Numbered from the stretch's first letter, positions 19,265-33,629 are shown. The stretch: 44,542 nucleotides of DNA from Terriglobia bacterium (GCA_041483755.1 JBGPGF010000001.1:1-44542); one strand, 5' to 3'. Translations and numbers: made by a program. Notes: a model not told the origin generated them from the letters alone.

Positions 19265-19410
19265 TAACAGGTTGCTGAAAAGTGTTCTCGCGTCGTCATT
19301 CCGAGCGAAGCGAGGAATCTCTCTTCGAAGAGGATTCAAGAAAAAGAGAGATTCCTCGTCGCTCCGCTCCTCGGAATGACAGACGCAAGGGGTTTTTCAG
19401 CAACCTGCTA
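19265..19410. mobile_element. MITE-like element with nested inverted repeats, copy 1
   Basis: Terminal IR TA(A/G)CAGGTTGCTGAAAA at both ends; internal IR GTCATTCCGAG..CGAGGAATCT / AGATTCCTCG..CTCGGAATGAC; no transposase. Confidence 0.7.
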
Positions 19411-24287: not shown

Positions 24288-24848
24288 TTAGCGAGCTGGG
24301 GCACCGGCGGTGCGAATACTGAGAAGAATGCGCCGCAAGGGCCGGGTCAGGTGAGCTGCGGCGCGGACAAGCGCATACCACAACCGGCTGTGTGCGGAGA
24401 TTTGGGAGATGATCAGCCCCAGAGCGACCTGCTTCGGCGAGTCGAGATCAATCCGGCGGTTCCGGCGGTAGATCCGCACCACGCGTCCAAGGATTTCTTC
24501 GCCCTTCAAAAGGCCGTCTGGCCCCGGCTGGGCATCACCCTTGGCCAGAAACTGCGTTCCATTGAGTCCATCGCGCTTTTCGACCAAGCGATGGACGAAG
24601 AGGCGCTCGTCCCGCGCGAACAGCACGACGTCGCCGCAGCGCGCTGAATCCGCGGAGTTGCGCCGCACGAGCGCCACGTCGCCGGGGCGCACCCAGGGAA
24701 GCATGCTTGACCCGCGCACCCGTAGGCTCACGCGGCCGCGTTGCTGCAGGCGTTCGCGGATGCGCAGCGTGTCGCTGGCGCGGCGCTCGCCTTCCATGTT
24801 GCGTTCCGCCGGCCGGTTCTCGCTGCGCCGTTCTGTGGCTGCGTTCAC
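24288..24848 (-). CDS. S24/S26 family (signal peptidase I-like) peptidase
   Basis: GSSMLPWVRPGD, VHRL and AKGD motifs; GTG start with GGAG RBS. Confidence 0.85.
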   Translation of the reverse strand: MNAATERRSENRPAERNMEGERRASDTLRIRERLQQRGRVSLRVRGSSMLPWVRPGDVALVRRNSADSARCGDVVLFARDERLFVHRLVEKRDGLNGTQFLAKGDAQPGPDGLLKGEEILGRVVRIYRRNRRIDLDSPKQVALGLIISQISAHSRLWYALVRAAAHLTRPLRRILLSIRTAGAPAR

Positions 24849-24855
24849 TTGCTCC

Positions 24856-25332
24856 TCACGGCTGAAACTCGATGTTCTGCTGAGCCACAAGCTGTCCATC
24901 GAGGGAAATTTGTATAGCCCATTGCCCGGTCACTTCGCGCTGGACGATCCACGTTCCCGCGACGGGCACGAGCATGCTGGTTTGCGAACTTGCGTCCGGC
25001 ACATCGGCAAGGAACGCTACATTCCGCGTTTGGTACACGCCTCCGCCGGGTTCCATGATTTCGATCGTTCCCGTGTGCGTGCCTTCCGGAACGTGGCTCC
25101 AGTTGATCGTGATCGAAAGATCGCGCAGGCTGGCCAGTGAGTAGGCAGCCTCACTCGCGCAGCCGCCTTCGGTCTTGTTGCAGGCCATGACGGTTGCGGC
25201 AGGCTGCGGCGCAAGGAAAACGTTCCCTCCGCCAGCCGCCGCGCATCCCGTCAGACTCGCCGACGCCAGCGCCAGCAGCGCTAGCGCCGCCGCGGTTTCC
25301 CATCGTGATGTCCATGCGTGCCGCATCTTCAT
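24856..25332 (-). CDS. Lipoprotein of unknown function
   Basis: Hydrophobic signal with LTGC lipobox; beta-sandwich-like C-terminus. Confidence 0.78.
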   Translation of the reverse strand: MKMRHAWTSRWETAAALALLALASASLTGCAAAGGGNVFLAPQPAATVMACNKTEGGCASEAAYSLASLRDLSITINWSHVPEGTHTGTIEIMEPGGGVYQTRNVAFLADVPDASSQTSMLVPVAGTWIVQREVTGQWAIQISLDGQLVAQQNIEFQP

Positions 25333-25335
25333 TTC

Positions 25336-27627
25336 TCAGAAAGGAATCGTGAATCCATACGCGCGCTGATCGTTCGTCGTCGTCGAGACGTAAACGCGGT
25401 TCAACGCCAGGTCCAGCCCGGGGTCCCCCACCACCGCGGGGTAAAACGTATTGACCACGCGCTGTTTTCCGATCGTCCCGTCGGCCATGTTCAGCTCATC
25501 AATAAATCCATTGCCTGTCCCCACGTACACTTTCCCGTTCGGGACGGAAACCACCGGCGCCGAGGGCGACGTTATCGCCGGGCTGTCCCACACGCTCGTG
25601 AATGTATTCGTCGCCGCCGTGAATCTCACGGCGTGGACCTTTGTGCTGCCGCTGACCACGACGCGGAACGGCGAGACGTCGTCCACGATGTAGGGGAAAC
25701 CGCGAAGGGCGCCGTCGCCGACGTTGATCGAGCCCAGCGTCGCGCCGGAAACCGGATTGATCGCGTAGAGGATTCCGGCATTCGTCCCGACAAAGAGAAC
25801 ATCGCTCGAATAGGTGAGCGAAGGGCTGCTGTCTATATCCGTGCCGCCCAGGTTGGTTCCAAAGAGCACGGCGCCCGTAACGGGATTCAGCTTCCAGAGG
25901 TTGCGCTGCGCCGCGCCGGCGTTGCTGTGGCTGGTCACCCAAATAGCGTTGTGAATGTAGTCCACGGTCGGAGTCGAGCTGATGATGTCGAGGGCCGTGG
26001 TTGCTCCCGCGCTGCCGGTGTAAGTCCAGATGGTCGCGCCGGTATTGCCGTTCAGGCCGACGATGCGGTTTGCCGACGTGGTGCCGCCATTGCGTGTTCC
26101 GGCGACGACCAAATCATTCGCGAGAGTGAACCCGGCTCCACTGTACGTCTTCACCTGCACGGCCGCGCCGCCCTGAAAGAGATTCGCGGCGGCGCCGGTG
26201 GGATTCACGAGCCAAAGGATCTGCCCCGTCACCGTATCCACTGCGTAGATGAAGCCGTCCTGCGCGGTGACGTAAGCGGCCTGCTTAGCGATGGAAGCGT
26301 CGCCCGCATCCAACACGGGCGGCCGGCCGGAGATGATTCCTCCCAGCGCGACGGCCGGATAAATGCGAAGCCCGGAACTTGCATCCAGTCCAAAAAGCTG
26401 GTCGGTATCGGCGCCGATGTCCACCTGCGAACCCGGCACAAGCCCGGGCGCAGCCAGCGTGGTCGAATGGGTAGCCACCATCCACGCGGGCGCTTGCGTG
26501 CTCCCCGCCGGATTGGGCATGGCGCCCACTTCCGCCGTGTATGTGGAGCTGCCCTCGCGCGGCGCAGCGAGCCCCGCGGGGCTCGAGGTGTAGTTGAACA
26601 GCGTGTCGTAAAGAAACACTTTGTAGTAGTACATCGTCCCGTTCGTCAGTCCGCCGCAGGTATTGTCCGCGAAGCTTGTGCCCGCGCCGGTATAGACCAC
26701 CGTTCCGTTCCCGACGGTTGAACAGAGCGCGATCGAAGCGGGATTCGTGCCATCCGCCGGCGCCGAGCTTTTGTCCACCGGCGCGGTCGCGCGGCGCAGG
26801 ATCACGACGCCGACATACGGTTCGAGCAGCGTCGCACCCGGGAGAGCCGTCATGGTCGCCGGACTCGTCCAGTTCAGCGTGATCGAGCTGTTTCCCGGCG
26901 TCACCGTAAGATTCCGGACGTTTTGGAGGTAGTTGATGGTCAGCGAAGGCCGGTTGGCCGGAGTCGCGTCTTGCTTCGAGCTGAAGATCGTTGTCCGGAC
27001 CGTCCCACTGTTTTCCGTCTGGTCGCGGATGAGTGTGCCGAAATTCGCGGTGCTGTTGTACCAGCTCTGGACGTCCCGCGTGAGCGTCCAACTGATACTT
27101 GTGCCCGCGCTGGCCGTGGTGACGGCGGCAGTGCTGGTCACCATTCCGTAAAGGTCGCCCCCGGCTGCGCCCCAAGCCGTTCCCGATGCGCGGTTCGTCC
27201 AACTCGTGTTCGTTCCGTCCCAAAAGCTGGTGAGGAGGTACGCGCCATAGGTGCGGTTGTTTGTTGGCGCGGTAACCACGTGCAGCGTCAGCGTTGCGCT
27301 CTTGATCCCCGCATTGGGTAGGACCGAAAGGTCAAACAAGACCAAGGCTCGCCGCGCTTGGCCTGTCCGTGACTGAACCTGAAGAGTTGTCGCGCCGGCG
27401 TTTGTTCCTGCCGGGTTGTTTTGATCAATCCAGGTATCGGCTGCGCGAAGCTGGGCGTTCGAGCCCGCCTTCTGAATGACTACCTGCTCACGGGCGGAAA
27501 GAGGCGGTGACGCGAGGAGTTGAGCCACAAGAGCGCCAAAGCCGCAGAGTAGTGCGCCCCAAGACTCGCTCTTCCAATTTTGACGTTGTCCAAGCATGAC
27601 CGTGAGCCGAACTGAAACACCGACCAC
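25336..27627 (-). CDS. Secreted multidomain protein: DNRLRE-like domain, FN3-like domain, PQQ/BamB-type beta-propeller
   Basis: ADTWID, RRALVLFDLS and ANRPSLTI (DNRLRE-like); VTPGNSSITLNW and LTNGTMYYYKVF (FN3); repeated IYAVD..TG..W and SSP blades; start uncertain (27627 or 27597). Confidence 0.82.
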   Translation of the reverse strand: MVGVSVRLTVMLGQRQNWKSESWGALLCGFGALVAQLLASPPLSAREQVVIQKAGSNAQLRAADTWIDQNNPAGTNAGATTLQVQSRTGQARRALVLFDLSVLPNAGIKSATLTLHVVTAPTNNRTYGAYLLTSFWDGTNTSWTNRASGTAWGAAGGDLYGMVTSTAAVTTASAGTSISWTLTRDVQSWYNSTANFGTLIRDQTENSGTVRTTIFSSKQDATPANRPSLTINYLQNVRNLTVTPGNSSITLNWTSPATMTALPGATLLEPYVGVVILRRATAPVDKSSAPADGTNPASIALCSTVGNGTVVYTGAGTSFADNTCGGLTNGTMYYYKVFLYDTLFNYTSSPAGLAAPREGSSTYTAEVGAMPNPAGSTQAPAWMVATHSTTLAAPGLVPGSQVDIGADTDQLFGLDASSGLRIYPAVALGGIISGRPPVLDAGDASIAKQAAYVTAQDGFIYAVDTVTGQILWLVNPTGAAANLFQGGAAVQVKTYSGAGFTLANDLVVAGTRNGGTTSANRIVGLNGNTGATIWTYTGSAGATTALDIISSTPTVDYIHNAIWVTSHSNAGAAQRNLWKLNPVTGAVLFGTNLGGTDIDSSPSLTYSSDVLFVGTNAGILYAINPVSGATLGSINVGDGALRGFPYIVDDVSPFRVVVSGSTKVHAVRFTAATNTFTSVWDSPAITSPSAPVVSVPNGKVYVGTGNGFIDELNMADGTIGKQRVVNTFYPAVVGDPGLDLALNRVYVSTTTNDQRAYGFTIPF

Positions 27628-27814
27628 GAAGGCGTTCGCGAAGGGGACAGTTCATGCCTCTAGGGCTAGCCTGATGTTTCAGCTTGGGACGGTCAATGGG
27701 ACTAATGTACGTTTTTGCCCAAAAGGACAGTATCGGTGCGAGACAGTCACTGTACCTGTATGGCGGGAGAGCGGGAACTATTGGACGTTGTATAAGCTAT
27801 TGTATATTAACAAC

Positions 27815-27985
27815 TTACGAGCGCCTGGGGGCCGCGTTGCAGACTCCCCCCTGGCCAGGGAGCTTGCCGCAAGCCAGAGCTAGAGTCTCGTAGATCGGTT
27901 CGGACTGGACGCTCGGCTTCGAATAGGGCTTCTTGCCCGCTACGGAGCCCGAAGCGCCGGTGTCGGGTTTGTTTTCGTCAGACAT
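27815..27985 (-). CDS. Putative RiPP precursor peptide, 56 aa (not in ORF track)
   Basis: MSDENKPDTGASGSVAGKKPYSKPSVQSEPIYETLALACGKLPGQGGVCNAAPRRS*; starts 15 nt after the rSAM stop; YxxP leader motif typical of RRE-bound peptides. Confidence 0.85.
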   Translation of the reverse strand: MSDENKPDTGASGSVAGKKPYSKPSVQSEPIYETLALACGKLPGQGGVCNAAPRRS

Positions 27986-28000
27986 ACCTATCCATAATCC

Positions 28001-29206
28001 TTACACCAAACTGGGCTCGAGAGTACGAAGTTTTCCACACGGGGGTTCCGTTTCAGATAACGAGCGCCCGTTCTGCTGCAGATGCAGTGCACTCACTGGA
28101 TCGCTAACACCTGCCAGGCGTGCCTTCTGCTCGGCCAGTTCGCAAGCGCGTTCATAGGCACCGAGCAGGTCGCCGCCTTCCATCAACGCGAGTCCCGGGC
28201 AGCGTTCGCAGTACGCTCGTATCGTACAGGTCGAGCAGACCGGCATTTGGCTCTCGCGGACCGCGCGGACGCGCTTGAGAGCCGGCGAGCCCTCCCAGAT
28301 ATCGCGAAACCGATCGCGGCGCAGGTTGCCCGCAGCCATGGGCAACTGCACGCAGGGATACAGATCGCCATAGGGCGAGACGTAGCAACTGTTGTGTCCC
28401 GCGCTGCAGGGAATGTCCTCGTAGGCGCTGCTCTCGATCCCGCTCGATACGGCGCTGCCCAGCGCGGACACTGGGGCATCTGCCGCTGGGCTTGCCTGCG
28501 CGGCCGCAGCCGGAGCGCGGCACGGATTCAGCACCGGGTCCTGCAGGATTGTCATGAGCTGCCCGGTCGTGGCGCGCAGCGCCAGCGGGCCTTCGTTGCC
28601 GTCCATCATCGGCGTAATCGTCAGGTCGAAGACGTAGCCGACGCCGAGCCGCTCCGCCAGAGCCAGCACGCCGCGGTAATCCCCGAGGTTCTGCGTCATC
28701 AAGGGGCACGCGAACTTCACGAGGATTCCGGTGCGGAGGAGCAGCGGCACCGCCGCCAGCGTTCGTCCGAGCGATCCCGGTATTTTGGTGACCGCGTCGT
28801 GGACCGCGGGTTTGTCGCTGTACACGCTAATCTGCACGCGCCGCACGCCGAGTTCGTGCAGGTGCGCGGCACGCTCCGCCGTGATCAGCAGCGCGTTCGT
28901 CTTGAGGCTCACGTCGAAGTGCAGCCGCCGCGCCGCGTCCAGAATTTCGAATAGGTCCGGCCGGAGAAAAATTTCGCCGCCGCTGAAAGTCAGAAAGAGC
29001 GTTCCCGCGCCAGCCAGCTCTTCGAGTACGTGAAGAACTTCGGCCGTGGACAATTCTCCATGGTCCTCGTGGTCGAGATAGCAGTGCACGCACCGCTCGT
29101 TACAGCGATACGTCAGATCGAAATGAACGCTCAACGGCCTGTGCCGCCGCACGGTTCGTGCGATCAAGCGGTCCATCACCGGCGTCGGTGCCGCTGCTGT
29201 GCTCAT
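28001..29206 (-). CDS. Radical SAM/SPASM domain peptide maturase
   Basis: CNERCVHC (CxxxCxxC), SGGE, SPASM cysteines CSAG...YPC...CSTC...CERCPG...C. Confidence 0.95.
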   Translation of the reverse strand: MSTAAAPTPVMDRLIARTVRRHRPLSVHFDLTYRCNERCVHCYLDHEDHGELSTAEVLHVLEELAGAGTLFLTFSGGEIFLRPDLFEILDAARRLHFDVSLKTNALLITAERAAHLHELGVRRVQISVYSDKPAVHDAVTKIPGSLGRTLAAVPLLLRTGILVKFACPLMTQNLGDYRGVLALAERLGVGYVFDLTITPMMDGNEGPLALRATTGQLMTILQDPVLNPCRAPAAAAQASPAADAPVSALGSAVSSGIESSAYEDIPCSAGHNSCYVSPYGDLYPCVQLPMAAGNLRRDRFRDIWEGSPALKRVRAVRESQMPVCSTCTIRAYCERCPGLALMEGGDLLGAYERACELAEQKARLAGVSDPVSALHLQQNGRSLSETEPPCGKLRTLEPSLV

Positions 29207-29511
29207 CGCGAAGAATCTCCCGCGCTTCCATTCGCCGCCAGAACCACGAGCCGCTGCCCCGCGAGTTCCTCCAGAAGCGCTTCCGTGTCCGCGAGGGCGA
29301 TTTCGGAGGTTACGATGTACTCTGATCGCAGAAGCGCGGCGATCTCCGCCGCAGTGCGCTGACCGTCCACATGCTTCCAGATAAAGCTGCCCGTGTCGTT
29401 CAGCTCGTGCATGACGCTGTCGCCGGGAGAAATGATCACGGTCTCGCCGTCAATCTCCCGCCAGGCAAGCGCCGGATTCTTCTGCCACAGGGGCGCGGAA
29501 GGGCTGTTCAT
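29203..29511 (-). CDS. PqqD family protein (RiPP recognition element)
   Basis: AWREIDGETVI, LNDTGSFIWKHVDG, DTEALLEEL; ATGA overlaps on both sides. Confidence 0.93.
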   Translation of the reverse strand: MNSPSAPLWQKNPALAWREIDGETVIISPGDSVMHELNDTGSFIWKHVDGQRTAAEIAALLRSEYIVTSEIALADTEALLEELAGQRLVVLAANGSAGDSSR

Positions 29512-30287
29512 GCGGGAAGTACCTCCCAAAAGTTCTGGGTGCGCTGAAAATCCAAGTGATAGGACGGCACCTGTTCGACCGCCTGCGTTAGGATGTCGAG
29601 AAGGCGCCGATTGGCGCTTGTGTCCGTCGAGAAGAAAAGAACGTTGGGAAGGAGCGCGCGCAGCGCCTCCGCCGGACGCATGGCACGGACGCTATTGCGT
29701 GGCGACTGGATCAGCCGGAAGAAGCCCGCTACCGGCGCGCTGGTGTTGGAGCCGGCCGCGCGAAACTCTCCCCAAAACGGCGTGCCGTGGGCGCGCCATT
29801 GGCCTTCCTCATACCGCAACAGGGAAATCTCGTCTGTGAGCACGCTGCCGGCGGGCGCGAGTGACGCTACCGTGCTTTTGCCGGCGCCGGAGCGCCCTGC
29901 GAATACATATGCACGGCCCTGGCGCACGACCGTCGCGGCATGCAGCAGGAATCCGGTGCGCGGCAACAGCACCCATGACAAAAGGATCCTCAGCAACGTA
30001 TCGAGCGCGTAGGCATGCCGCACTCCGGAAAAGAACGCGCCGACTTTGTCGCACCGCAGGCTCGCCCCTTCAAATTGATAAGAAAAATCAGCGCTGTGCG
30101 GCAAGACAGGGGCCGGGGATTCAAACCGGATCGGATAGGCCGGCTCGACGGTTGCGCAAAACCCTTCGTACCGCTCCAGGCTTTGTGAGCGAAGGTCCTC
30201 TCCGGGAAAATGGAGCCGCATCGGCACGCAACCAATCGCTAAGTCCAATGGACGCGGCACAGCGCGGCCCGCATGGTCATCCAGCAC
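29508..30287 (-). CDS. HprK-related P-loop protein (ScmC-like)
   Basis: LLHAATV, GRSGAGKST, LTDE, AHGTPFWG; GTG start with AAAGGA RBS. Confidence 0.85.
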   Translation of the reverse strand: MLDDHAGRAVPRPLDLAIGCVPMRLHFPGEDLRSQSLERYEGFCATVEPAYPIRFESPAPVLPHSADFSYQFEGASLRCDKVGAFFSGVRHAYALDTLLRILLSWVLLPRTGFLLHAATVVRQGRAYVFAGRSGAGKSTVASLAPAGSVLTDEISLLRYEEGQWRAHGTPFWGEFRAAGSNTSAPVAGFFRLIQSPRNSVRAMRPAEALRALLPNVLFFSTDTSANRRLLDILTQAVEQVPSYHLDFQRTQNFWEVLPA

Positions 30288-30657
30288 GCCAGTTCCTTTC
30301 CTAATACGGCGCGTGACCGAGCCCTGGCGGGTAAGCAGGCGCGGTTCCCTTGCGCGATAACTCCAGGAAGCAACCCTGACCTAGTTTTGACTGCCCACCC
30401 ACGGTCAAGTCAAGCCGTTGTTTCAGGTGTTCCCTGAAAGCCAACAACCTGCCCACTATCCCTCGCAAAGGGAGCACATGGCGGAACACATAACTTGGCG
30501 CCGCGCGGCCAGGAACGCATCGGCCGGCCGTTGCAGGCGCCGGTAGTCCTTGACGGCTAGACGACCCGCCGAGTAATCTGTACAGCAATAAAATAGCCCA
30601 CAGTTATCGTTACTCATAGGTTCCCTCATGTTGCGGCATGGAGCACTCGGGGATGCA

Positions 30658-30786
30658 ATGGAAAAGCAAGAGAAGTTACCGTTGGGGGCTTATTGTTACG
30701 GCTTTGTCCCCGGGTTGCGCGGCTGGTCCTGCTGGCGCACAGCGGCAGTTCGGTCCCACCGGCGCGGGAGAAGAAGAATAATTTAG
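30658..30786 (+). pseudogene. Decayed paralogue of the secreted repeat-peptide gene
   Basis: Same position in the duplicated unit as 32307-32474; fragments MEK, GLLL, GLRG and LAHSGSSVPP are split across reading frames. Confidence 0.6.
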
Positions 30787-30825
30787 GTCCTGGCTGAGAT
30801 CGGGCCAGGCCTCTTTGTGATGGCA

Positions 30826-31965
30826 ATGCTTGGCCCGTTTGACTACGCGCTCTGGTTGGTGGGTTTTGCTGCAGAGCTGTGCGTTCCTCTCTTTGCTATC
30901 CGCCAAAGACAGTTCCTTCATTACTTCAGTTTGAATTTCTATTTCCTCGCGCTCGTAGCAAGCGAGATTCTGAGTTTCTTCATTCTCAAGACCTACGGCG
31001 TTGCCTCTCTCGAGTATCGCTACTTCTACTCCTATACGGATGTCCTGCTGACCGTCGTGCAGTTCGTGGCGATCATCGGCCTCTATCGGCACGTCTTTGA
31101 CGACATGGAAGCCGCCAAGTACATCCGAAGGCTGGCGGTTGTGGTCCTCAGTGTGATTTCCCTGGTTTCCTTCCTCATTGTTCAGGGAGAACGCTCGGCG
31201 CTCACGACGCGCTTCGCCATCGTACTCGGCCGGAACCTCTACTTCACGGGCATGCTGCTCACCTACATCCTCTGGGCCGCGATGTTCAAGCGGCGGGAAG
31301 CCCGCACCCGTCTCCTGTTGATCGTTACGGCCTTCGGAGTCTTCTTCGCGGGTTACGCGGTCACCTATGCTTTGCGTTTGCTGTTTCCCGGCCTGCCGGT
31401 GTGGCACGCCATTCCTCCTGTACTGGGCACCTTGCTCGCGCTCTCGCTGGCGTACACGTTTGCCAAAGTCCCCGAGGAGGAGCGCATCGCAACGCAACAT
31501 GCTGGAGGAGCCGAGGGCAGCCCGGCATGCAGCTCGAGTGTTCTCCTGAACGTCTCGCTGGTTCTTGCCGGGGGGATCGCCGCGGGGGCGCAGTTCTTTG
31601 TCTCGTATTGCCGCGTCTTCCTGCGCTCCGTGGCGGGGCGCCGGGTTTCGGACGACGTGCGAAGCCTGGCCCGGCTCGATGATTGTGAACCTTCGGCGGA
31701 TGCGCTTCCGCGGCTCTTCTCGCTCTTGGATGCGTGCCCTCCGGTCGCGGAGAAACGCCCCCACCATGTGCGCCTCGTGCGGTGGTATGGCACGATGATG
31801 AGATTCCTCGGCGGGCAATCCTTTTTCGCCCTGCGCTGGGGCCGTGCCTGGTTCCACCGGGAAGGGATGGCTTGCGCGCATTTTGCCGTCGTCACTCTCG
31901 ATGAGCGGATTTCCGCGATGCGCAACCTCTATGAACGCTACGTGACGAAAGTGGACCGCTCCTAA
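30826..31965 (+). CDS. 7TM protein fused to the partner domain (module copy 1)
   Basis: N-terminal ~225 aa paralogous to 32518-33213; C-terminal ~140 aa paralogous to 33210-33629. Confidence 0.85.
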   Translation: MLGPFDYALWLVGFAAELCVPLFAIRQRQFLHYFSLNFYFLALVASEILSFFILKTYGVASLEYRYFYSYTDVLLTVVQFVAIIGLYRHVFDDMEAAKYIRRLAVVVLSVISLVSFLIVQGERSALTTRFAIVLGRNLYFTGMLLTYILWAAMFKRREARTRLLLIVTAFGVFFAGYAVTYALRLLFPGLPVWHAIPPVLGTLLALSLAYTFAKVPEEERIATQHAGGAEGSPACSSSVLLNVSLVLAGGIAAGAQFFVSYCRVFLRSVAGRRVSDDVRSLARLDDCEPSADALPRLFSLLDACPPVAEKRPHHVRLVRWYGTMMRFLGGQSFFALRWGRAWFHREGMACAHFAVVTLDERISAMRNLYERYVTKVDRS

Positions 31966-32169
31966 CAGGTTGCGGAAAAAGGGTCTCCAGCCGTCATTCC
32001 GAGCGAAGCGAGGAATCCCTCTTTTCTTGGTGTGCAGTGCGGGAGCCGTGATGCGGCGGTGGAGGGCAGAAGAGAGATTCCTCGGCACGCAGCGTGCCTC
32101 GGAATGACGGCTCCGTGGCCACGCTTCACGCGGCATAACAGACAAGAGCACCTTTTCAACAAGCTGCCA
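31963..32169. mobile_element. MITE-like element with nested inverted repeats, copy 2 (degenerate)
   Basis: Left end TAACAGGTTGCGGAAAA supplies the stop of the upstream gene; same internal GTCATTCCGAGCGAAGCGAGGAATC / AGATTCCTCG..CTCGGAATGAC; right end TTTTCAACAAGCTG. Confidence 0.65.
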
Positions 32170-32242
32170 AAGACCAATGATCCTTGACGAGGTGGGTGCC
32201 CGCCGAGGAAACTTGATGTTAGCGGACTAACGCATATTAGCG

Positions 32243-32271
32243 TTGACCTATTATATACTAGTTTGTAATAT
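32243..32271 (+). promoter_or_regulatory. Sigma70-like promoter for the peptide gene
   Basis: TTGACC-N17-TAATAT with AT-rich spacer, ending 35 nt before the peptide ATG. Confidence 0.5.
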
Positions 32272-32306
32272 CCTCCTTGTTCCCACCGGGAACATAGGAG
32301 GATGTG

Positions 32307-32474
32307 ATGAAAAAGTGGCAAGCGATAGTAGTTCTGGGTCTGTTGCTCGTTGCAGCTTCGATGGGGTTGCGCGGACTTCTAGGCCCAGCGATGGGTGGTA
32401 GTCCGGTGCCGCCGTCGCCGTGGCTGGCGATGGGTGGCAGTCCGGTGCCGCCCTCACCTTGGGTAAATAGGTAG
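32307..32474 (+). CDS. Secreted 55-aa peptide with two tandem AMGGSPVPPSPW repeats (not in ORF track)
   Basis: AGGAGG RBS 5 nt before ATG; MKKWQAIVVLGLLLVAASMGLRGLLGP-AMGGSPVPPSPW-L-AMGGSPVPPSPW-VNR*; the DNA repeats differ only at synonymous positions. Confidence 0.9.
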   Translation: MKKWQAIVVLGLLLVAASMGLRGLLGPAMGGSPVPPSPWLAMGGSPVPPSPWVNR

Positions 32475-32517
32475 ATCGGTCCTGGCTGCTCGTGGGCCAG
32501 GCCTCTCCGAGAAGGCG

Positions 32518-33213
32518 ATGCTTGGCCCATTTGACTACGCGCTCTGGCTGGTGAGTTTTGCGGGAGACGTGTGCATTCTCGTCTGCGCGCTCCGCCGGAG
32601 ACAGTTTTTTCAGTACCTCAGTCTGAATGTATTTATCATTGCGTTGGCTGTGGACGAAGTCTTGCGCTTCACCGTGTTGAGAATGTATGGATTTGCGTCC
32701 ATTCAATACCGTTATCTGTACTATTACACGGACTCACTCCTAGTCGTTGTCATGTTTGTGGCGATCTCCGGTCTTTACCGGCACGTATTTAGGGATGCAG
32801 AAACCGCCAAGTACATCCGGGGTTGGGCCGTTGTGGTTCTTAGTGCGACTTCCCTGGTTTCTTTCCTGGTGATTCAAAGAGAACGGTCGGCGCTCACGAC
32901 GCGTTTCGTCGTTGAGCTCGGTCAAAACCTCTATTTCACCGGAGTGACCCTCACTTACATTTTGTGGCTGGCGATGTTCAAGCGCGGAGAGGCCCGCACG
33001 CGGATCGTTTTGATCGTCACCGCGTTCGGAGTTTTCTTTTCCGCCTATGCCGTCACCTATGCGCTTCGGGGACTGCTTCCGAATCTAGCGGTCTGGCATG
33101 TAATTCCTCCCCTGCTGGGCACGTGGCTCCCACTCTCGCTCGCCTACACGTTCGCCAAGGTTCCGGAGGAGGCGCGAATCGCGGCGCTCGATGCTCGCGG
33201 GACGCACTCGTGA
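32518..33213 (+). CDS. 7TM membrane protein of unknown function (module copy 2)
   Basis: Seven hydrophobic segments by eye, no soluble output domain; shares MLGPFDYALWLV, ERSALTTRF, IVTAFGVFF, LSLAYTFAKVPEE with copy 1. Confidence 0.88.
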   Translation: MLGPFDYALWLVSFAGDVCILVCALRRRQFFQYLSLNVFIIALAVDEVLRFTVLRMYGFASIQYRYLYYYTDSLLVVVMFVAISGLYRHVFRDAETAKYIRGWAVVVLSATSLVSFLVIQRERSALTTRFVVELGQNLYFTGVTLTYILWLAMFKRGEARTRIVLIVTAFGVFFSAYAVTYALRGLLPNLAVWHVIPPLLGTWLPLSLAYTFAKVPEEARIAALDARGTHS

Positions 33214-33629
33214 CCGCCGTATTCGTCATGGCCGTCAGTCTTGCGGCTCTGGCGCACTCTTTCATCTCCCATTGCCGGACCCTCCTGCGCGCGGTTGCAA
33301 ACATCCAGGTCTCCCAGAACGTTCGCACACTGAGCGGGCTGGACTTCGGCAGGACGGCGATGGAAGCCTTTTCCCGGCTGGCGCTGCTTCTTCAGTTGTG
33401 CACGCCCATGACGGCGGAGCGCACCCGGGAGCTCCGCTTTGTCCGGCTCTACTGCGCGTTTCTGAAGCTCGCGGGGCTGGTTCCCCCTCCCCTGCTGGGC
33501 CGCGAGCGGATCTGGCTCCAGCGCGAAGTGGCGGCTTGCGCGCATTTTGCCGCCGTGGCGCTGGATGAACGAATCTCACGCATCCGCCGCTTCTGCGAAC
33601 ATTCTCTTCCCGATACTCTTCGCCCATAG
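33210..33629 (+). CDS. Membrane-anchored partner protein, 139 aa (module copy 2)
   Basis: GTG start in a GTGA overlap with the upstream stop; N-terminal hydrophobic helix; shares CR, RL..LL..C.P and ACAHFA.V.LDERIS with the copy 1 C-terminus. Confidence 0.82.
   Translation: MTAVFVMAVSLAALAHSFISHCRTLLRAVANIQVSQNVRTLSGLDFGRTAMEAFSRLALLLQLCTPMTAERTRELRFVRLYCAFLKLAGLVPPPLLGRERIWLQREVAACAHFAAVALDERISRIRRFCEHSLPDTLRP

Follow-up and report, generated by a model that had tools for sequence, protein, structure and literature searches.

The agrBDCA, comCDE and comQXPA loci are peptide quorum-sensing systems of Gram-positive bacteria, while in yeast the alpha-factor precursor combines a signal peptide with several identical cores and has the G protein-coupled receptor (GPCR) Ste2 as its receptor. 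Here we describe a three-gene unit from a 44,542-nucleotide stretch of DNA of a Terriglobia bacterium (GCA_041483755.1 JBGPGF010000001.1:1-44542; the window), which encodes a small peptide precursor, a seven-transmembrane (7TM) protein and a membrane-anchored partner, and which on balance probably constitutes a peptide-signalling system composed of a multi-core secreted peptide, a 7TM receptor and a non-enzymatic transducer. The window holds two homologous versions of this unit, 1692 nucleotides apart. The three-gene unit is real, and it is intact only in unit 2 (32307-33629), the components of which are as follows:

32307..32474, plus strand: intact 55-residue precursor with a signal-peptide-like leader and two Pro-rich cores
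32518..33213, plus strand: stand-alone 7TM protein of 231 residues, predicted GPCR-like fold, N-out/C-in
33210..33629, plus strand: partner of 139 residues, N-terminal membrane helix and helical bundle, translationally coupled to the 7TM gene

As in the agr and com loci, a small peptide gene stands directly before a multi-pass membrane protein as candidate sensor, the peptides are lineage-specific and a conserved operator lies upstream; unlike those loci, this one has no kinase domain, response regulator or processing gene, its precursor is multi-core and its host is diderm. The likeness to alpha-factor and Ste2 resides in the signal-peptide-like leader, the tandem identical cores and the predicted seven-helix, N-out receptor fold, whereas the present system is bacterial, is contained in one operon together with a single-pass partner, has neither dibasic (Kex2) sites nor a G protein, and displays no sequence similarity that we could find. 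It differs from the RRNPP systems (Rap-Phr, PlcR-PapR) in that the neighbour of the peptide is a 7TM protein and not a cytoplasmic TPR receptor. Prokaryotic 7TM sensor domains of GPCR fold, carried on histidine kinases and diguanylate cyclases, are described in section 5 of PMC13581589; the predicted fold is alike, but the protein considered here stands alone at ~230-265 residues, has a linked peptide and matched no Pfam 7TM family. Searches of the open-access literature (titles and abstract starts) found no description of the peptide-7TM-partner system, nor did our open-access searches turn up any peptide-signalling system in Acidobacteria, and as far as searched the system is likely undescribed.

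The initial annotation had made its reading depend on homologous 7TM genes generally having a peptide gene upstream, and most of them do. Close loci were defined as the stronger order-wide 7TM matches (129 scored; 122 kept, unit 2 included, for which the N-terminus and a sufficient stretch of upstream DNA were available), and distant loci as 51 from other families, 48 of them with enough upstream DNA. A peptide gene was counted where an upstream open reading frame (ORF) combined a signal-like leader, judged by hydropathy and charge and not by SignalP, with a Pro-rich core. Such an ORF precedes the 7TM gene in 116/122 close loci, compared with 4/122 on the opposite strand and 2/114 downstream; the six misses comprise three intact precursors outside the pattern, one remnant and two second copies without a peptide. 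At the distant loci the count is 31/48 (of which about two seem to be spurious) versus 2/48 in the control. Precursors range from 46 to 131 residues, and 87 of 119 contain exact repeats. In unit 2 a basic-hydrophobic leader is joined to two copies of MGGSPVPPSPW, and elsewhere the cores vary by lineage on a fixed Pro scaffold (e.g. NTSGPMPPSPW, NGGAPAPPTPW and STGNPVPILPD). Both copy number and spacer are variable, the spacers being mostly Ala, a single Lys/Arg or Ser. One family has cores with two Cys (e.g. PMCPPSDPNAC; L334, L331, L348, L349), suggesting disulfide-looped peptides.

The third gene is also linked to the second. A partner profile matches 114/124 close loci, and nine of the ten misses belong to one family, in the inspected loci of which a divergent membrane protein is encoded downstream. 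At 108/119 loci the partner gene begins before the 7TM gene has ended (-4 or -1), the overlap in unit 2 being 4 nucleotides. The predicted partner structure (pLDDT, predicted local distance difference test, of 91.5) consists of a membrane helix and a helical bundle, with Cys63-Pro65 and Cys109 (A3 numbering) invariant. Fold comparison returned generic helical bundles only (Z<8, nothing specific), no TPR match was found, and profile comparison among the partner clades gave weak (44%) or no (2.6%) correspondence. A solo partner homologue, with neither 7TM nor peptide gene, also occurs in the source genome (G000:C97:4721-5122; L283).

That neither protein could be assigned to a characterised family had been noted at the outset, and scans of Pfam, NCBIfam and PDB sequences bear this out. 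No Pfam or NCBIfam family rose above cut-off for peptide, 7TM protein or partner; sets of 26 and 52 members scanned against Pfam gave no 7TM, transporter or OST-alpha/TM184 family match; no PDB sequence matched the 7TM protein; and the ESM Atlas yielded Acidobacteriota clusters without a name, the best row of the named-cluster search standing at 0.75. Likewise, the described lack of kinase, cyclase and DNA-binding domains stands, as no enzyme, output, kinase or DNA-binding domain was found in the 231-residue protein. Its structural model (pLDDT 79.5) has seven helices, and the top rows of the structural comparison are GPCR folds, from Z 15.1 (root-mean-square deviation 3.9, 210 residues aligned) down to 10.7, with alignments that span nearly the whole length; named matches are a designed GPCR-like fold (Z 15.1), LYCHOS (13.3), GPR156 (12.5) and FZD1 (12.3). 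The 50 rows listed do not include OST-alpha. Lys and Arg are enriched in loops 1, 3 and 5 and in the C-terminal tail, which predicts an N-out/C-in orientation. In the outer halves of the helices, Gly58, Ser61, Tyr64/66/68/70, Gln136, Asn137, Phe140 and Tyr181 are conserved and would suit a pocket for Pro-rich peptides. The conserved columns contain neither DRY nor NPxxY, the motifs of GPCR classes, helix 7 of A1 has no conserved Lys in the manner of the retinal-binding Lys of microbial rhodopsins, and neither a heterotrimeric G protein nor an arrestin is among the recurring neighbours of 20 loci. Longer or fused relatives were sought twice; one search gave a single garbled 247-residue protein and the other none, a weak negative given that the first also missed the fusion present in the window itself. 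In a single case, that of the homologue P0181, a zinc finger of the anti-sigma type (zf-HC2, E 5.6e-6) is present at the N-terminus.

Taken as a signalling system, the unit may be envisaged to work as follows. The precursor would be exported by the Sec route and cleaved into several identical Pro-rich cores, the first usually after Ala and later ones after Trp/Tyr plus a short spacer. The 7TM protein would then bind the cores at its outer face, and the resulting change would pass through the partner, which is coupled to it and anchored in the membrane, to a regulator encoded elsewhere, possibly the reader of the palindrome described below, with feedback on the genes that the palindrome controls. 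For the assignment of the 7TM protein as receptor, the predicted GPCR-like fold and the N-out topology are fitting. Across 97 complete loci, furthermore, the correlation of core distance is highest for the outer half of the 7TM protein (rho 0.375), lower for its inner half (0.296) and lowest for the partner (0.147), with partial values of 0.28, 0.14 and -0.13, respectively. Arg184 accompanies canonical cores in 59/68 cases versus 7/29 otherwise by raw counts, which reduce to 5 independent pairs and are not significant. As such, the co-variation check proposed by the initial annotation did give a stronger correlation with the 7TM protein than with the partner, but it is not significant once kinship is considered, and we regard co-variation as a hint, only suggestive, and not as a result. 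Co-folding of the 7TM protein with precursor residues 26-55 (score 0.09, mark 0.32) provides no evidence either way.

Several observations weigh against this interpretation. Foldseek lists GPCRs and rhodopsins, none of them at E<=0.001, and Z values of 12-15 are close to those that helical bundles attain simply by being arranged alike. Many prokaryotic proteins have a GPCR-like fold, non-sensors among them (section 5 of PMC13581589), and on its own the fold therefore says little. For the main clade no linked output domain was seen. The outer-inner difference in co-variation is reached by 40/300 random column splits, and tests on independent pairs (5-8 pairs) are not significant. The pattern finds no peptide in 17/48 distant loci, and the two second copies without one belong to the close clade. 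The window copies themselves depart from consensus at 19 and 17 of 62 conserved sites, where the orthologue median is 3, and both are devoid of the palindrome and of the second upstream site considered below.

Of the other explanations, the one that survives best is that the precursor remains tethered to the membrane or periplasmic as a built-in ligand, and that the complex reports the envelope state, secretion or proteolysis of its own cell. Ligand and receptor do appear to be encoded in a single operon, the first core lies at no fixed distance from the hydrophobic stretch, the precursors compared have no conserved dibasic site at which the cores could be cut apart, and a diderm outer membrane hinders exchange. 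However, several identical, lineage-specific cores with variable spacers and copy number fit the release of equal peptides, and Ala stands directly before the core in 66 of 104 pattern matches; we consider a tethered ligand unlikely. Quite unlikely as well is a peptide transporter or export-import unit made up of the 7TM protein together with its single-pass partner, after the manner of OST-alpha/OST-beta. SLC51A is among the GPCR-like folds and SLC51B is its obligate partner (both in section 5 of PMC13581589), so that the pairing of a GPCR-like 7TM protein with a single-pass protein is common to both, and the tight translational coupling and the polar residues inside the bundle are also in keeping with transport. 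That pair, however, is a eukaryotic solute transporter with no linked peptide and no sequence match here. Furthermore, no transporter family was matched, a Sec-type leader should need no dedicated exporter, and the soluble bundle of the partner is conserved and of considerable size.

We find it very improbable that the peptide acts as a toxin, whether antimicrobial or for kin discrimination, with the two membrane proteins providing immunity. Pro-rich antimicrobial peptides do arise from repeat precursors (e.g. apidaecin), and the cores differ between lineages, but the unit is near-universal, mostly single-copy and at a housekeeping locus, the post-leader region is nearly uncharged (median net +1), and 7TM copies and a solo partner occur on their own without apparent need. 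Least credible of all is a 7TM enzyme that cuts or modifies the precursor, in the manner of a ribosomally synthesized and post-translationally modified peptide pair, as the gene adjacency and the conserved Asp/Glu72, Glu133, Asn137 and Tyr residues are countered by conserved columns without His, GxGD, GxSG or HExxH (catalytic motifs) and by sequence scans that matched no protease family or solved relative.

Returning to the unit as a signalling system, its regulation can be examined in the orthologues, the upstream regions of which contain two sigma-70-type promoters. Of 118 orthologue upstream regions, 97 contain a palindrome, TRGTAC-N4-GTACYA, with a score of 10 bits or more, as do 2 shuffled regions, the matrix having been built from those same upstream regions; the TTG of the -35 element directly follows it in 80, and it is also present in 7/48 distant loci. 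An independent check comes from the source genome (G000), where 13/15 strong sites lie outside long ORFs versus 23/169 for permuted matrices. The palindromes of this genome precede PilZ-like, Cache-HAMP-HD, histidine kinase, TonB and HEAT-PilZ genes, and the same kinds of gene lie behind the palindrome in G096, G055 and G006. The apparent regulon comprises PilZ, HD-GYP, TonB, ECF-sigma-like, LuxR-type and subtilase genes (loci L250-L272; in G000 at C57:8099, C82:5524, C141:2774, C153:2804, C210:102 and C54:8485); the subtilase gene behind one G096 palindrome has no tblastn match in G000. A LexA (SOS) box was considered and rejected, the best scores in G000 being 3.2 bits at the lexA locus and -1.6 bits at recA. 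A second site, GTGT..TTT.GACAC, occurs in 52/118 orthologue regions and is essentially unique to this promoter in 4/5 genomes, while G000 lacks it. A structured RNA or riboswitch was likewise rejected; Rfam gave only tRNAs in 13 loci and there was little or no consensus structure, and the motifs are therefore read as DNA sites. The peptide may control the regulator that binds the palindrome.

Among 2098 candidates, 650 are 7TM relatives, the named homologues being from Candidatus Acidiferrales. The 7TM profile matches 126/151 genomes of the order, mostly once per genome, a narrow profile 5/301 genomes across the phylum, and a broader one 82/151 genomes of the class; a broad profile draws 3448 cluster representatives, the best 150 of which all have 426 residues or fewer. 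Most often the unit stands immediately upstream of tilS-hpt-ftsH (16/20 loci; tilS in 67/80). On the strength of these genome comparisons the unit is real and widespread, common in many soil and sediment Acidobacteria. Orphan 7TM copies, often divergent, occur without peptide or partner gene (L040-L046, L037, L083). The source genome also holds a module of a second clade (G000:C35:8522-11875; L284) with a 60-residue peptide and one ADGG-P-P-P core. The gene order in this clade is XRE-HTH, a small uncharacterised gene (convergent), peptide, 7TM and partner (L284, L048, L050, L052), and the XRE-HTH and small genes also flank 4/51 distant loci.

The remaining features of the locus concern unit 1 and the DNA between the units:

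30550..30579, plus strand: promoter-like element of unit 1, TTGACG-18 nt-TAATCT (sequence reading, unit alignment)
30658..30797, plus strand: frameshifted peptide gene of unit 1 with one core remnant (three-frame translation, alignment to unit 2, contigs of three runs)
30789..30809, plus strand: GC hairpin in the peptide-7TM gap of unit 1 (unit 2 counterpart ~32478-32503)
30826..31965, plus strand: in-frame 7TM-partner fusion of unit 1 (7TM to ~31518, partner from ~31546; junction bridged in three runs)
31966..32150, no strand assigned: palindromic repeat between the units, resembling a repetitive extragenic palindrome or miniature inverted-repeat transposable element (MITE) (inverted arms, genome copies, very high summed contig depth)
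32243..32271, plus strand: sigma-70-type promoter match of unit 2, TTGACC-17 nt-TAATAT (position of the orthologues' proximal promoter)

The initial annotation saw two adjacent copies of one unit. Their homology is clear (the 7TM proteins are 68% identical), and both have the common upstream element (in unit 2 at 32184-32213, with a weak -10), the GC hairpin and a Cys-containing partner, but unit 1 is not intact and cannot be called a working copy. Three-frame translation and alignment to unit 2 put its leader in one frame and its single core in another, and its 7TM gene continues without a stop codon into the partner, resulting in one 380-residue ORF across a junction 28 nucleotides longer. 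Contigs from 3/4 runs examined span the broken peptide gene, and the same three bridge the fusion junction gap-free; with identical letters at both breaks in these runs (of the four, the best-matching may be the source sample itself), they are not assembly errors. Between the units, for the 7TM gene, nonsynonymous (dN) and synonymous (dS) divergence are 0.21 and 1.28, and for the partner 0.56 and 1.11. By these values the duplication is old, and those of the 7TM gene argue that it was under purifying selection for most of the time since. Glu133, Gln136 and Pro205 are lost in unit 1 alone, which is an old duplicate deprived of its peptide and may be either an orphan receptor or decaying. The tilS gene of the source genome has no unit beside it and the branch of the tree that bears the window copies is long, and therefore these copies look relocated. 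The tandem duplication itself is ordinary and incidental to the finding.

The MITE-like repeat reported between the units was recovered as a palindromic repeat with arms at 31989-32003 and 32098-32112; partial copies are on 11 other contigs, and one more is on the contig of the window (19268-19325). The sigma-70-type match at 32243-32271 is one found against 0.9 expected by chance. On the other side of unit 1, a SynChlorMet-like cassette (24288-30287, minus strand) is divergent from the peptide-7TM unit and contains genes for a ScmC/HprK-like kinase, PqqD, a radical SAM/SPASM protein, a DNRLRE/beta-propeller protein and an S24/S26 peptidase, in addition to a 56-residue precursor-like ORF with two Cys (27815-27985). 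We rejected a link to the peptide and 7TM protein in view of the divergent orientation of the cassette, the precursor-like ORF that it carries for itself and its absence from the recurring neighbours of the orthologues.

It is tempting to extend these observations to a class-wide, hormone-like circuit, in which multi-core secreted pheromones, stand-alone GPCR-fold receptors and a non-enzymatic membrane partner would act through a regulator whose TRGTAC-N4-GTACYA operator governs their own operon and a PilZ/HD-GYP/TonB/ECF-sigma regulon, the second clade being wired to an XRE repressor. We hold this wider proposal to be doubtful, if conceivable; were it true, Terriglobia would govern their surface lifestyle by quorum sensing with an auto-inducing peptide. 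Few groups of soil bacteria are as abundant as the Acidobacteria. If the unit does function as a peptide-signalling system, it would represent a new signalling architecture in diderms, in which a stand-alone, GPCR-shaped receptor is encoded with its lineage-specific ligand, and would offer a simple model of peptide recognition by 7TM folds in the absence of G proteins. As genome sequences reveal the ligands, the idea is open to testing with synthetic peptides, and these might also be of use in growing or steering hard-to-culture Acidobacteria.

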